Assembly (NCBI GenBank): GCA_029974275.1
Contig: JARKSN010000030.1
Coordinates: forward strand, 8,101 to 72,100
Direction: 5' to 3'
Origin: Candidatus Hydrogenedentota bacterium
Lineage (GTDB): Bacteria > Hydrogenedentota > Hydrogenedentia > Hydrogenedentales > SLHB01
DNA length: 64,000 bases
In this document: piece by piece, positions 45,849 through 64,000 of the stretch
Layout of the letters: the number at the start of each line of letters is the position of its first letter
How positions within the stretch are numbered: the stretch's first letter is position 1
Program-made: the position numbers and the translations under genes
The notes under the pieces: generated by a model
Told to the model about the DNA's origin: nothing
What the model saw: only the letters and a program-made list of their open reading frames with translations
Databases searched by the model: none

Positions 45849-47714
45849 GTGCAGCAGTCGCTCAACTTCAGTCTATTCGGCCAACGGCTGGTGCAGCGCG
45901 GCATTATCACCGAGCAGCAGCTTGCCGAGGCGATTCATAAGCAACAGACGACGATGAGCCATCGTAAGCTGGGCGAGATTCTCGTCCGGCTGGGGTATAT
46001 CGCCAAGAGCCATATCACCGAAGGGCTGGCGGATCAACTGGGCATTCCCATCATCCGCCTTTCCGATCGCGAGATACCTGAACGCATCCGCAATTTGATC
46101 GAACCTGCCATCGCCACGCTGTACCGCGTCATTCCCGTCGCCGAGGAGGGCGACAAACTTCTTATCGCCACGGCCGACCCGACCAATATCAATCAGTTGG
46201 ACAATCTCGAGCGCCTCATCGAGCGGCAGATCGAGCCGCAGTTGGCGACGCCGCAGGAGATCAGCTTGGCGCTGGCCAAGTATTACGGTCTTCCCGACAC
46301 GACGGTGGAGACGCTGTTGTCTTCCGTGAGCAGCGCGAGCACGATGAGCACGTTGAGCACGATGTCCAACGTGAGTTCGCTGGATTCGTCGCTGAGCAGC
46401 CTGGGCAGCTTGTCGGGCAGCGACATCAGCATCAACAGCCTGAGCATGGAAAGTCCTGAATTCGAGGCGGCGTTGGGCGTGGTCAAGGGCGAGGACGAGG
46501 ATAGCGACAGCCCGGTGGTGCGGTACGTGATGACCATGATCCTCGAGGCGTTCCGCTTGCGGGCCAGCGATATCCATATCGAGCCGGGCAAGACGGACGT
46601 GAAGGTCCGTTTTCGCATCGACGGGGTGCTGCAGCAGATGCCGAATCCGCCCAAACGCGCGCAGCCTTCGATCATTTCGCGGCTCAAGATCATGGCGGGC
46701 ATGGACATTTCCGAGCGGCGCGTTCCACAGGACGGACGCATCAAGCTGCCGCTGGCGGGCAAGGTGGTCGACCTGCGCGTCAGCGCCTTGCCGGCGTCTC
46801 ACGGCGAGTCCATGGTCATGCGCATTCTCGACAAGAGCGGACTTTTTCTCGGCCTTGGCCAGCTGGGTTTCACGCCGGAGGATCAGAAGCGGTGGGAGGA
46901 GTTGTTGGCCGAGGCGACGGGCGTCGTGTTGGTGACAGGCCCCACAGGGTCGGGCAAGACAACGACGTTGTATGCCTCGCTGCACAAGTTGAATCAGCCG
47001 GACACCAAGATCATCACCGTCGAGGACCCGGTTGAGTATCAGCTCAATGGCATCAATCAGGTGCAGATTCAGCATGACATTGGATGGACTTTCGGGCGTG
47101 CTTTGCGCGCCCTCTTGCGTCGGGACCCGGACATCCTCAGGGTGGGCGAAATTCGCGACGCGGAGACGGCCGAAATCGCCATCAAGTCCGCGCTGACAGG
47201 GCATCTCGTGTTTTCGACGTTGCACACGAACGACGCGCCGAGCGCGTTTTTGCGCATCGTGGACATTGGCGTGAAGCCGTTTTTGGTGGCTTCGGGCGTG
47301 CGCGCCGTGTTGGGGCAGCGGCTGGTCCGCGTCATCTGCTCCACGTGCAAGGAGAGTTACCGTCCGGATACGTTTGAAATCGAGCAGGCGAACGTCTCCT
47401 TGGACATTTCCAAATATGAATTTTTCCGGGGCCGCGGCTGCAACAACTGCAATCATAGCGGCTATCAAGGCCGCATCGGGGTGTACGAACTCCTTATCAA
47501 CACCGACAAGATTCGCTCGATGGTGATGGAGGGGGCTCCGGCAGGCATGTTGCGTCGCGAGGCGCGGCTGGGCGGCATGTGCACCATGCGCCAGGACGCC
47601 TTGAAAAAGGCCCTCAATGGAATCACGACGCTTGAGGAGGTTGTCCGCGTGACGCAGCCGGATGAGCCGTTGCCGACGGCCGAAGCGGACGTAGCCGTGC
47701 CGGCGTCGGCATAG
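45849..47714 (+). CDS. pilB: PilB/GspE-family assembly ATPase (copy 1), MshEN-like N-terminus
   Basis: ASDIHIEP; PQDGRI; GPTGSGKTTT; EDPVEY; GHLVFSTLHTND; tetra-Cys motif. Confidence 0.93.
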   Translation: MQQSLNFSLFGQRLVQRGIITEQQLAEAIHKQQTTMSHRKLGEILVRLGYIAKSHITEGLADQLGIPIIRLSDREIPERIRNLIEPAIATLYRVIPVAEEGDKLLIATADPTNINQLDNLERLIERQIEPQLATPQEISLALAKYYGLPDTTVETLLSSVSSASTMSTLSTMSNVSSLDSSLSSLGSLSGSDISINSLSMESPEFEAALGVVKGEDEDSDSPVVRYVMTMILEAFRLRASDIHIEPGKTDVKVRFRIDGVLQQMPNPPKRAQPSIISRLKIMAGMDISERRVPQDGRIKLPLAGKVVDLRVSALPASHGESMVMRILDKSGLFLGLGQLGFTPEDQKRWEELLAEATGVVLVTGPTGSGKTTTLYASLHKLNQPDTKIITVEDPVEYQLNGINQVQIQHDIGWTFGRALRALLRRDPDILRVGEIRDAETAEIAIKSALTGHLVFSTLHTNDAPSAFLRIVDIGVKPFLVASGVRAVLGQRLVRVICSTCKESYRPDTFEIEQANVSLDISKYEFFRGRGCNNCNHSGYQGRIGVYELLINTDKIRSMVMEGAPAGMLRREARLGGMCTMRQDALKKALNGITTLEEVVRVTQPDEPLPTAEADVAVPASA

Positions 47715-47752
47715 GGTAGGAAACGGGGCGCGCCCCAAAGGAGACCGCGTTC

Positions 47753-48874
47753 ATGGCGTATGAGATGGTGCCGTTGTTGCGCATGCTGATTGATCGGGAA
47801 GGTTCGGATTTGCATCTTGCCGTGGACAATCCGCCGGTGGGGCGCGTGCATGGTCATTTGCAATATTTTGGCGAGACCCCGTTGACCGCGGACGACACCG
47901 AACGTTTGATGAAAAGCGTGGCTTCCGTGGATAACCAGCAGGAATTGCAGGAGGTGGGCGGATCGGACTTTGGATTCGCCTTTGAGGATATCGCCCGGTT
48001 TCGCGTGTCGATTTTCAAGCAAAAGGGCTATGTGGGCATGGTGCTGCGGTTGATTCCGCGCAAGATATTGACCTTTGAGGAGATTGGGCTTCCGCAGAGC
48101 CTCAAGCAGGTGATCAATCAGCCGCGCGGCCTGATTTTGGTGACGGGGCCGACGGGATCGGGCAAGTCGACGAGTCTGGCGACGATGATCGACTGGCTGA
48201 ACGGCGAGTTCGATCATCACATCATCACGATCGAGGATCCGATAGAGTATTACCACTCGCACAAGAAGAGCATTGTGACGCAGCGCGAGGTGGGGGTGGA
48301 CGTGCCCACTTTCGCGGAGGCGCTGCGTCGCGCGTTGCGTCAGGATCCTGACGTGATCCTGGTGGGCGAAATGCGCGATTTGGAGACGATTGGCGCGGCG
48401 GTGACGGCGGCCGAGACCGGTCACTTGGTGTTTGGCACGCTGCATACGACGGGAGCCGTGCGCACCATTGACCGTATCGTCGACGCGTTTCCGACCAACC
48501 AGCAGGAACAGATTCGCACGCAGCTTGCCGGCAATCTGAAATCCATCATTTCTCAAACGCTTTTGCCGCGCAAGAGCGGTTTTGGCCGCGTGGCGGCGTT
48601 CGAGGTCATGATCACCACGCCCGCCATTCAAAATCTCATCCGCGAGAATAAGTCGTACCGCATCACGTCTGCGATTCAGACCGGCCACAAGTTCGGCATG
48701 AACCTGCTGGATGAACATCTGCTGATGCTGTATAAGCGCGGCATCGTGAAGTATGAGGACTGCGTTTCCAAGTCGCAATCGGCCGACGAGTTCGAGGCGG
48801 CGGCGCGGGCGGCGGGATTGGAAGATATGCCCGCAGCGAAACCGGCGCCGGGCGCGGCGACGGCGCGCCACTAG
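47753..48874 (+). CDS. pilT: Type IV pilus retraction ATPase
   Basis: [49 protein letters not shown]. Confidence 0.95.
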
Positions 48875-48972
48875 GACGGGCGGGCGGCGCGGCGAGGGCT
48901 GCGCCGGGCGGATGCCAAGGGATAAACGCCGCGCGGTAGGCGCGCGGACAGCGTGAAAACGGGAAAGGCGCG

Positions 48973-62546: not shown

Positions 62547-62550
62547 GCGA

Positions 62551-62694
62551 AACGCGGAGAAAAAAGAAGAAAACTTTAACGCAAGGGCACAATGAAGCGA
62601 AGGGCAGAGGCGCGGAGACGCAGAAAAGATCGCCTGATTGTTTTTTCTCTTCCTTTGTGTTTTCTCTGTGTTCTTTGTGCCTTTGTGGTGAGTC
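62551..62694. repeat. Intergenic repeat element, copy 3
   Basis: GCAGAGGCGCGGAGACGCAG... and CCTTTGTGTTTTCTCTGTGTTCTTTGTGCCTTTGTGGTGAGTC. Confidence 0.75.
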
Positions 62695-62751
62695 TTGGGT
62701 CTTAAACGCCGGACCCGGTCAGGGCCAAGGTCTTGTGCGATAGGAGCCTGA

Positions 62752-64000
62752 ATGATGCGTAACATGATTCGCTGTACGGCGGGGTTAGCCCTCGCGCTGA
62801 CGATCCTGTCGTTGATCGCGCCACCCGCCGTCGCCCAGACGACGTTCGACAGGGTCGTGGTCACCATCGACGACCGCAGGAGCTTGTGGGATGTGGACGA
62901 GAGCGCCAAGGTGTCTCCTTCGTCCGTCAGCGCCAGCGCGAATCTGATCGACGAGGCAATAAACCGGGTTGTGTCTGGCGGCACGGTGGTTCTCGATCAA
63001 GGGAACTGGCCCTCTCCCACGCATGTCGGGAAGTCTGTGACCATCATGGGGAATCCGTTGAGCCCTCCGTATGCCGTGGTGATCCAGGGGAACGGGGCGC
63101 CTGTCTTGGACGTGAACGGCAACAACATCGACGTTACCGTCGAGGGGGTCACCCTCCGAGGGGGAACGCGGGGGGTCTGGTTGTCGGGCATTGGCGTCAG
63201 CGTGGCGGTGAACCGGTGTTTGTTGCTGAGCAATTCGTTGACAGGTCTTTCCGTGACGGCAACGACGGGGCTGAACCAAGCGCTGATCGTCAATAGCTAT
63301 CTCGGCGGAAATGGGACGGGGGTCCGGTTGAGCGGGCCGAATTCCCGCGCGGCGATCGTTTTCTGCACGTTTCGCTACAATGCCGCGGCGGGCATCGCCA
63401 TAGAGGATCGAGCGACGGCAAGGGTTTTCAACACGGTGTTGTACGAAAACCAGGGTTTTACGGACGAGATCACGCTATCCGGCGGCGGCAACATCGTGGG
63501 AAGAAACAACTACGTTCCCAATAAGGCCGCGCCCAACGTGTCCGCTTTGTCTCCTGTTTTCGACAGTTCGGATTTTCCCCCGGATTTCGATGACGGCGGC
63601 TCGGCTCCCTGGCCCGGCAAGATTCTCGATACGTCCGCGTTGCAGTCCAAGGGCGCTTCCACCGCAAACCTCTCGCTGCAACTAAAGGATTTTCCTTTCT
63701 CGTTGGGTAAGTACGTCAGCAGCGATCTGGAATTGACTCCCCGCCCCATGCCTTCGAGCAGCGCGCCGGATATCGGAGCCGATGAAGCGCCTGACTCTGA
63801 CGCGCCGCTTGTGCAGTGGTATTATTGCAGCGTGACCCAGCCGGACAGCCCGAACGAGGGCGTGGTCGGCAACAAAGTCCGTGCGGAATTGCGTTTCTAC
63901 GGCATGGACCCGCCCGATGAGGTCTATTGGATACCCCAAGGAGGCGAGCCAACCCTCAGAGACCGTCAGGCGTTGCGGCGGACCATCAATGTCGGCGGCG
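62752..64000 (+). CDS. Secreted right-handed parallel beta-helix protein, truncated at the window end
   Basis: Not in the ORF track. Manual translation: MMRNMIRCTAGLALALTILSLIAPPAVAQ...VTVEGVTLRGGTRGV...NSYLGGNGTGV...DLELTPRP...PDIGADE; AGGAG RBS. Confidence 0.8.
   Translation, partial: MMRNMIRCTAGLALALTILSLIAPPAVAQTTFDRVVVTIDDRRSLWDVDESAKVSPSSVSASANLIDEAINRVVSGGTVVLDQGNWPSPTHVGKSVTIMGNPLSPPYAVVIQGNGAPVLDVNGNNIDVTVEGVTLRGGTRGVWLSGIGVSVAVNRCLLLSNSLTGLSVTATTGLNQALIVNSYLGGNGTGVRLSGPNSRAAIVFCTFRYNAAAGIAIEDRATARVFNTVLYENQGFTDEITLSGGGNIVGRNNYVPNKAAPNVSALSPVFDSSDFPPDFDDGGSAPWPGKILDTSALQSKGASTANLSLQLKDFPFSLGKYVSSDLELTPRPMPSSSAPDIGADEAPDSDAPLVQWYYCSVTQPDSPNEGVVGNKVRAELRFYGMDPPDEVYWIPQGGEPTLRDRQALRRTINVGG

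Follow-up and report, generated by a model that had tools for sequence, protein, structure and literature searches.

Within a 64,000-nucleotide stretch of a Candidatus Hydrogenedentota bacterium genome (GenBank assembly GCA_029974275.1, contig JARKSN010000030.1, positions 8,101 to 72,100; hereafter the window), a gene cluster running from position 45,849 to the right-hand edge encodes components of a type IV filament system that resembles both the type II secretion system (T2SS) and the type IVa pilus (T4aP). The original prediction, made from the letters of the window, described a run of pilB1, pilT, pilB2 and pilC followed by pilin genes and a beta-helix gene. Open reading frame (ORF) lists together with Pfam and NCBIfam matches bore this out, with all of these genes present and co-oriented on the + strand. 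Lengths are given in amino acids (aa).

45849-47714, + strand: PilB1, extension-type ATPase, PF00437 439.7 bits (ORF open from 45783; 643 aa from 45783)
47753-48874, + strand: PilT, 373 aa, retraction ATPase, TIGR01420 464.5 bits (cut-off 319.1)
48973-50715, + strand: PilB2, 580 aa, second extension-type ATPase, PF00437 439.8 bits
50795-52036, + strand: PilC/GspF, 413 aa, inner-membrane platform protein, PF00482 217 bits in two stretches
52121-52852, + strand: first pilin, 243 aa, putative major subunit with N_methyl motif and GspG-fold head
~52988-53764, + strand: second pilin in the GspH/FimU position, N_methyl 30.6 bits (ORF open from 52916, start uncertain)
53765-54211, + strand: third pilin, 148 aa, GspI/PilV-like, N_methyl motif
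54208-55719, + strand: fourth pilin, 503 aa, GspJ/PilW-like with a large C-terminal extension, N_methyl 24.4 bits
55848-62546, + strand: giant GspK/PilX-like protein, 2,232 aa, K-type N-terminus, NF037980 40.3 bits
62752-64000, + strand: beta-helix protein, PF13229 31.4 bits (continues past the window; 1,085 aa on the contig)

Both a third-codon-position GC (GC3)-aware ORF call and the plain ORF list gave an uninterrupted + strand run after murC-ftsQ-ftsZ, with intergenic spacing within the cluster ranging from overlap to about 200 bp; the start of the fourth pilin overlaps the stop codon of the third. The PilB1 start at 45849 is a GTG preceded by a purine-rich stretch. The prediction had counted five prepilin genes, and this was right for the four that carry an N_methyl prepilin motif, while the fifth is the 2,232-aa giant, in which only about 96 N-terminal residues are GspK-like. 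The gene for a secreted beta-helix protein was also there as described, except that it is cut by the window edge; the N-terminus of the protein, read by eye, is hydrophobic and signal-peptide-like. Past this gene, the contig continues with unrelated genes on the minus strand.

The first pilin, putatively the major subunit of the filament, carries the clearest T2SS-type features. The GspG hallmark motifs that had been quoted for it are conserved in 13 of 13 orthologues, in which D122, W124, Y128, G224, D226, D227, W231 and D232 are invariant, and the protein carries a GGGDDINNWD loop. Its translation has no cysteine and hence no disulfide-bonded C-terminal loop. Family models gave a much fainter signal, with the GspG model TIGR01710 reaching 40.5 bits (cut-off 88.85) over the N-terminus only and PF08334 (T2SSG) giving no match at E <= 0.01. 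Among solved structures, the N-terminal helix was matched best by Geobacter PilA-N and other T4a pilins. We obtained an AlphaFold2 model from 13 sequences (pLDDT 79.7) and ran VIA-align on the Foldseek candidates for it. The best-scoring structures were V. cholerae EpsG 3fu1_B (Z 9.9, root-mean-square deviation 2.8, 107 of 112 residues) and V. vulnificus 3gn9 (Z 9.9), with 4lw9 at Z 9.5, enterohemorrhagic E. coli GspG 3g20 at Z 8.9 and PulG at Z 7.0, whereas the T4a pilins 1oqw, 1ay2, 2hi2 and 3sok reached Z 3.5-4.5. An hhalign comparison with E. coli K-12 GspG gave 98.8% probability over 104 columns that include the DPWGN-Y motif. The GspG fold, on which the original prediction had been staked in advance, was recovered by both comparisons (Z 9.9 and 98.8%). 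Together, these findings indicate that the modelled head of the first pilin is a GspG-like fold with insertions, carried on a T4a-like N-terminal helix.

The next four genes had been predicted to follow the order H, I, J, K, and the I-like, J-like and K-like assignments held, while the assignment of H comes from the N-terminal helix and gene position only. The second pilin, with orthologues in 12 of 12 order-level loci, scored 29.8 bits against the GspH model TIGR01708 (cut-off 80), and hhalign aligned it with E. coli GspH over 36 N-terminal columns only. The third pilin matched TIGR02523 (PilV) at 34.4 bits and TIGR01707 (GspI) at 29.5 bits, and its hhalign match to E. coli GspI is nearly full length (91.8%, 105 columns, positions 1-113 of 125). 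For the fourth pilin, the best NCBIfam matches were PRK10557, Verru_Chthon C and HpsC, all under their cut-offs, and hhalign matched it to E. coli GspJ at 94.3% over 70 N-terminal columns.

The giant matched the GspK model NF037980 at residues 21-96 (40.3 bits, cut-off 130), and hhalign aligned its N-terminus with E. coli GspK over 78 columns (55.6%, E 1.2e-4). It is a putative tip pilin with a K-type N-terminus. The orthologues are 2,005-2,777 aa long; like the giant, they have Asp-rich repeats of DxDxDG-like form and the motif GRININTA, and their C-terminal ends are highly conserved (TTRSDVFEI ... RTVYER; consensus TTRSDxFEI ... YER). Of 11 orthologues, 3 have PilX_N and 10 have a Lamin Tail Domain (LTD); in the giant of the window itself the LTD score is under the Pfam cut-off (18.1 vs 34.3). 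Lamin Tail Domains also occur in some extracellular nucleases. We also noted that the LTD-like region of the giant, at 59100-60300 (residues ~1093-1475), is apparently split by an insert of about 250 residues in the alignment consensus, with EWVE and GW motifs near residues 1104-1180 and a closing GD-V-L ... VD-V-Y near 1445-1475.

The motor proteins fall between family models. Against NCBIfam, PilB1 scored 594.8 with the PilB model TIGR02538 (cut-off 675.65) and 581.4 with the GspE model TIGR02533 (cut-off 630.25), and PilB2 scored 593.7 and 579.6 with the same models; neither cut-off was reached by either protein, and TIGR02538 outscored TIGR02533 by 13-14 bits for both. Among solved structures, both ATPases matched the Geobacter and Myxococcus PilBs best and Vibrio GspE at lower scores, with PilB1 at 488 bits against Geobacter PilB and 404 against EpsE, and PilB2 at 492 bits against PilB and 417 against GspE. 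By these sequence scores, both ATPases lean towards the PilB of T4aP. They share about 39% identity with each other. Both contain an MshEN domain (PF05157; 71.5 bits for PilB1, where it is N-terminal, and 69.0 for PilB2) and match the cyclic di-GMP (c-di-GMP) motif model NF053729 at 53.7 and 57.5, respectively (cut-off 38). MshEN domains also occur in many PilBs and are hence not diagnostic of the mannose-sensitive hemagglutinin (MSHA) pilus. PilB1 additionally has a Ser-rich linker. A pattern scan detected a Walker A, a Walker B-type box, a His box and two CxxC in each of the two proteins. The Walker A, His box and two CxxC are kept in almost all rows scanned for both; the strict patterns missed one Walker A and several Walker B/Asp-box strings in these rows.

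PilT, on the other hand, is a clear family member, scoring well above the TIGR01420 cut-off, with orthologues that are 80-90% identical across 12 order-level loci. PilC is marginally over the GspF cut-off (TIGR02120, 429.8 vs 424) and reached 415.2 with the Myxococcus-type PilC model NF052606 (cut-off 700). We built ATPase trees with E. coli GspE and HofB, Comamonas GspE, loci from Aeromonas, Acetoanaerobium and Deinococcus, and paralogues from the same genome as references. PilB1 and PilB2 each formed a clade with 100% support and stayed apart from the GspE and the PilB references alike. The label "hybrid" used by the original prediction is thus a fair description of the family scores but not a phylogenetic result.

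The cluster is conserved well beyond this genome. The nine genes occur in the same order in all 12 loci of the same family or order, one of which is cut inside PilT by a contig end, and in both phylum genomes examined outside that order (2/2), where one contig ends in pilin 4, making 14 of 14 loci in all. The first-pilin profile matched 123 of 135 phylum genomes at E <= 1e-25, including 83 of the 86 high-quality ones, and 189 proteins at E <= 1e-30 among 1.84 billion cluster representatives. When genome contigs were scanned with generic prepilin N-terminus patterns from the first-pilin alignment, 78 unrelated prepilin loci and 0 orthologues were returned. DNA matching the window was found in wastewater, activated-sludge and anaerobic-digester metagenomes.

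The architecture also occurs outside this lineage. The same PilB-PilT-PilB-PilC order was met by chance in a metagenome-assembled genome titled Omnitrophota, and in this second phylum a single PilT with 52-62% identity to that of the window was present in 54 of 65 genomes. All 8 second-phylum genomes examined contain PilB, PilT, PilB and PilC followed by prepilin N-termini. At one annotated locus, these include a 145-aa GspG (PF08334, 60 bits), a GspH match of 26.2 bits and a further prepilin, and the same locus encodes a 621-aa protein with weak T2SSK and T2SSK_1st matches. The ATPases of the two phyla group by position (SH-aLRT 85 for the first and 93 for the second), a pattern of sequence relatedness which suggests either that the ATPase duplication is older than the cassette of either phylum or that the cassette moved as a unit.

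The original prediction had also noted that no secretin, PilM or prepilin peptidase gene lies in the window. This is true of the whole contig, but such genes are present on other contigs of the genome. Across the assembly, we counted 8 secretin matches, 20 T2SSF domain matches, 1 prepilin peptidase, several PilM matches and 18 matches to the T2SSE ATPase family at E <= 0.001 (17 over cut-off), all on other contigs except the three ATPases and PilC of the cluster. These include a complete T2SS from GspC to GspM (GspD 423.8 with a cut-off of 351.35, GspE 672.6, GspF 447 and GspG 136.5). Another PilB reaches equivalog level (684.7) and is adjoined by PilT, a histidine kinase (PilS) and a sigma-54 regulator (PilR). 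A PilM-N-O-P-PilQ set is also present. The second module of this kind comprises a PilM-like fusion of 630 aa, a TPR-secretin of 1,016 aa and two small proteins. It was matched best by the models of Akkermansia Amuc_1101 (262.1 vs 650) and Amuc_1098 (145.5 vs 750), far under cut-off, and its secretin scored 135 bits against MshL (cut-off 250.2). Since the complete GspC-to-GspM locus lies elsewhere and is conserved separately, we consider the cluster a machine separate from the T2SS; we rejected the cluster as the organism's T2SS on the same ground.

The search for a secretin gene that the original prediction called for led to the second of these modules. In 5 of 5 relatives with long contigs, its counterpart (the PilM-like gene, the two small genes and the TPR-secretin gene) lies downstream of the giant and is co-oriented with it. 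The interval between the giant and this module holds a beta-helix gene in 4 of these relatives and, likewise in 4, a gene for an FGE-sulfatase/PEGA protein. Over the wider set of relatives, beta-helix homologues come after the giant gene in several and are weak or missing in some. In all 3 relatives examined for it (3/3), a complete T2SS immediately precedes pilB1. In relatives, the T2SS, cluster and PilM-secretin blocks make up one super-locus of ~45-50 kb, as estimated from coordinates. In this genome, the three blocks lie on three contigs, with cell-division genes upstream of the cluster instead, reflecting either a rearrangement or an assembly artefact.

Three observations concern the genes of these other loci. 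An FGE-sulfatase and PEGA protein is encoded immediately upstream of the PilM-like gene here (L049:9436-10869), as in the 4 relatives just mentioned, and it could be a pilin- or adhesin-modifying enzyme. The 1,016-aa secretin (L049:2370-5420) has N-terminal TPR repeats, like a pilotin-like TPR protein fused to a secretin. Directly upstream of the equivalog-level PilB-PilT-PilS-PilR genes, a 912-aa protein (L051:6593-9331) fuses MshEN to a DnaA-type AAA+ domain; we know of no description of such a fusion.

Taken together, we think that the locus probably encodes an undescribed lineage of retractile type IV filament, built from GspG-fold subunits and equipped with dual extension motors, PilT and a giant K-type tip pilin. 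In such a machine, the pilins would be processed by the single prepilin peptidase encoded elsewhere, and the I-like pilin 3, the J-like pilin 4 and the giant K-like protein would form an initiation/tip complex under which the second pilin would dock. The two PilB-type ATPases would act on PilC to polymerise the GspG-fold first pilin beneath this cap. Both PilBs may be signal-gated since both carry the c-di-GMP-type MshEN domain. The fibre would exit through the TPR-fused secretin, aligned by the PilM-like module, and PilT would depolymerise it, pulling on whatever the ~2,000-residue tip protein had bound. The choice of the first pilin as major subunit, the placing of the giant at the tip, retraction, what the tip binds and how the two PilBs share the work are our inferences. 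Such a filament would likely serve to attach to particles, polymers or other cells within flocs and to exert traction on them.

Several results weigh against this reading. The main uncertainty is that a reference phylogeny could put the cluster inside the diverse T4aP: backbone support in our ATPase trees, which hold few references, is below 95, and the PilBs could form either a separate clade or a branch inside a paraphyletic T4aP. Foldseek with the first-pilin model returned nothing at E <= 0.001 (best E 0.14). For the giant, the K assignment draws on about 80 N-terminal residues plus motifs, the profile matched no solved chain at E <= 1, and the AlphaFold2 model of the last 273 residues (pLDDT 38.5) is unusable. 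It is also not obvious how a tip protein of an estimated ~240 kDa would pass through a secretin. The PilM-secretin module is not adjacent to the cluster in this genome, which also has a second PilMNOPQ set, and the pairing is by synteny in relatives only. In favor of the reading, 4 metatranscriptome runs from 3 studies contained short perfect-match contigs for the ATPase genes, PilC, three of the pilins (1, 2 and 4) and the giant, but contigs of RNA libraries may reflect DNA carry-over, give no strand or expression level and are not proof of transcription; stretches of the cluster that lack such contigs are uninformative.

Of the alternatives, the one that survives best, though we judge it unlikely, is that the cluster is the phylum's ordinary T4aP and that its hybrid look arises from diverged sequences scoring between family models. 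The minor pilins FimU-PilVWX of such pili are homologous to GspH-I-J-K, the order pilB-pilT-pilC is standard in Myxococcus and Geobacter, and PilT is a clear family member. The higher scores of both PilBs against solved T4aP PilBs than against GspE, the T4a-like helix of the first pilin and the PilM-like module and secretin found with the cluster in relatives would all be expected of an ordinary pilus. Passages of Denise et al. 2019 (PMC6668835) describe T4aP as paraphyletic and very diverse and report "generic" systems with components matching different types, which also favors this alternative; because of these generic systems, a filament system with mixed profiles is not unprecedented in principle. 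On the other hand, the head of the first pilin aligns far better with GspG than with T4a pilins (Z 9.9 vs 3.5-4.5), and the first pilin of one second-phylum locus passes Pfam T2SSG outright. PilC reaches the GspF cut-off, and conservation of the second PilB inside the operon spans two phyla. Moreover, it is another ATPase in the genome that reaches the PilB equivalog cut-off, beside its own PilT, PilS and PilR.

We give less credence still to a specialised T2SS, in which a short GspG-like pseudopilus would push substrates, such as the beta-helix protein, through a secretin while PilT resets the piston. The GspG fold, the G-H-I-J-K-like order and the GspF cut-off reached by PilC are what it would predict. 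A secreted-type 1,085-aa beta-helix protein adjoins the cluster here and has counterparts there in several relatives, and the cluster lies beside a T2SS in relatives. However, no GspC, GspL or GspM accompanies the cluster, which has a PilM-type module instead, and the genome separately conserves a complete T2SS with its own GspC to GspM. The beta-helix gene, moreover, is weak or missing in some relatives, and a K protein of 2,000-2,800 aa kept in cis resembles a retained tip adhesin rather than a piston cap. Known T2SSs lack PilT, both as general knowledge and in passages of Denise et al. 2019 (PMC6668835).

A DNA-uptake (competence) pilus with a DNA-binding giant tip protein is very improbable: the LTD-like region in 10 of 11 giant orthologues, a helix-hairpin-helix match in a second-phylum K-like protein (HHH_3, 41.2 bits) and the use of retractile pili with PilK insertions for competence in Thermus and V. 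cholerae, as described in parts of PMC13533445, speak for it, but helix-hairpin-helix matches are normal in GspK family models (T2SSK matches the same residues), the LTD score of the window's giant is under the Pfam cut-off, and no ComEA, ComEC or DprA was seen near the cluster, although no search was aimed at them.

T2SS, as short pistons with no retraction motor, and T4aP, as long retractile fibres, are treated as separate machines; open questions include the origin of one kind from the other and the disassembly of GspG-type filaments. A retractile filament of the kind we favor would provide a natural, conserved case of GspG-fold subunits under PilT control, with two extension ATPases across two phyla. 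It would also be a study object for the division of labour between paired extension motors, the c-di-GMP gating of assembly and the mounting of very large tip proteins. The cluster probably encodes the main surface appendage of Hydrogenedentota and Omnitrophota, both uncultured groups. More tentatively, and with considerable doubt, we raise the possibility that it represents a third major kind of diderm type IV filament, a truly retractile pseudopilus with two non-redundant extension motors. Such a machine, nearly universal in two or more candidate phyla, would stand either at the origin of T4aP and T2SS or between them, and the Hydrogenedentota K subunit, as a grappling protein with several domains anchored at the tip, might exceed all other known pilin-like proteins in size.

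In the 596-bp gap between ftsZ and pilB1, promoter-like sites and a terminator-like hairpin were found, although promoter and terminator counts were about those expected by chance (9 promoter-like sites vs 5.6 +/- 1.9 in shuffles).

45647-45676, + strand: promoter-like site (TTGACA, 18 nt, TACATT, with TG), weak, a consensus match only
45507-45531: terminator-like hairpin in the gap between ftsZ and pilB1

Directly upstream of pilB1, murC, ftsQ and ftsZ lie at 41505-45252 with no ftsA between ftsQ and ftsZ, and a search with the PilM_2 profile, which matches FtsA in control genomes, found nothing on this contig. The FtsZ ORF would have a long N-terminal extension if its start is at 43735. Farther upstream, the minus strand encodes a 1,296-aa protein with TIG, BACON and dockerin domains (33013-36903), which is probably a cell-surface polysaccharide-binding or scaffold protein.

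The original prediction knew of no description of the architecture in this lineage, and we found no account of it in literature searches on Hydrogenedentota, Omnitrophota, Verru_Chthon, GspG/PilT pseudopilus retraction or type IV filaments. The main texts of two Hydrogenedentota genomics papers (PMC10866078 and PMC11406978) contain no pilus terms; a supplementary table of PMC11406978 gives KEGG-based pilB and pilT presence across genomes.

Compared with known systems, the cluster shares with the T2SS of E. coli K-12 (gspC-O) and V. cholerae (Eps) a putative major subunit that has the fold and hallmark motifs of GspG, an ordered series of H-, I-, J- and K-like genes behind it and a platform protein that reaches the GspF cut-off. 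Canonical T2SSs have one ATPase and no PilT, whereas the cluster has PilT and two extension ATPases, neither at the GspE cut-off. It also differs in its much enlarged pilins (G 243 aa, J 503 aa and K 2,232 aa) and in having a PilM-type module in place of GspC, GspL and GspM. With the T4aP of Myxococcus and Geobacter, in which pilB-pilT-pilC is the standard operon order, it shares the motor order pilB-pilT-...-pilC, PilT itself and the T4a-like helix of the first pilin, and the best solved matches of its ATPases are the PilBs 5tsg, 5zfr and 3jc8. It further resembles T4aP in the PilM-like module and secretin that accompany it in relatives, and the two PilM-to-secretin modules and one peptidase in the genome would supply an alignment complex and PilD. 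Unlike T4aP, it has a second PilB between pilT and pilC, a modelled first-pilin head that aligns better with GspG than with T4a pilins and ATPases that miss the PilB cut-off; no PilY1-type gene was recognised.

The original prediction had likened the cluster to the Verru_Chthon cassettes (TIGR02596-TIGR02600), with which it shares several prepilins, one very large K-like protein and weak N-terminal matches to A, B, C and D. Every hidden Markov model score was far under its cut-off (A, TIGR02600, 25.8/332.3; B, TIGR02598, 22.9/51.4; C, TIGR02599, 21.1/256.5; D, TIGR02596, 33.1/70), and we rejected membership in this group. The Akkermansia Amuc_1098-Amuc_1101 module is distantly related only, via the PilM-like fusion and TPR-secretin of the relatives' clusters. 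The MSHA pilus shares the MshEN c-di-GMP-type domain of the ATPases, while the associated secretin is under the MshL cut-off. A Candidatus Manganitrophus plasmid (CP114559.1) encodes a 1,613-aa hypothetical protein, two long prepilins, two PilB/GspE-type ATPases, a GspF-family protein and PilT in a single operon, and its first ATPase groups loosely with PilB1 (SH-aLRT 85), but this uncharacterised locus has another gene order and is plasmid-borne beside conjugative-transfer genes. Finally, the K-type N-terminus, huge middle and conserved extreme C-terminus of the giant recall the PilK-type tip pilins (CpaL of the Caulobacter Tad pilus and those of Thermus and V. cholerae competence pili) and MshQ of MSHA. 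Sections of PMC13533445 (2026) describe PilK-type proteins as able to hold large insertions between the beta-sheet and an in-cis C-terminal strand, with CpaL at ~600 aa and MshQ at ~1,200 aa, compared with 2,005-2,777 aa for the giant orthologues. By analogy, the giant would fit this insertion and in-cis-strand layout at an extreme size.

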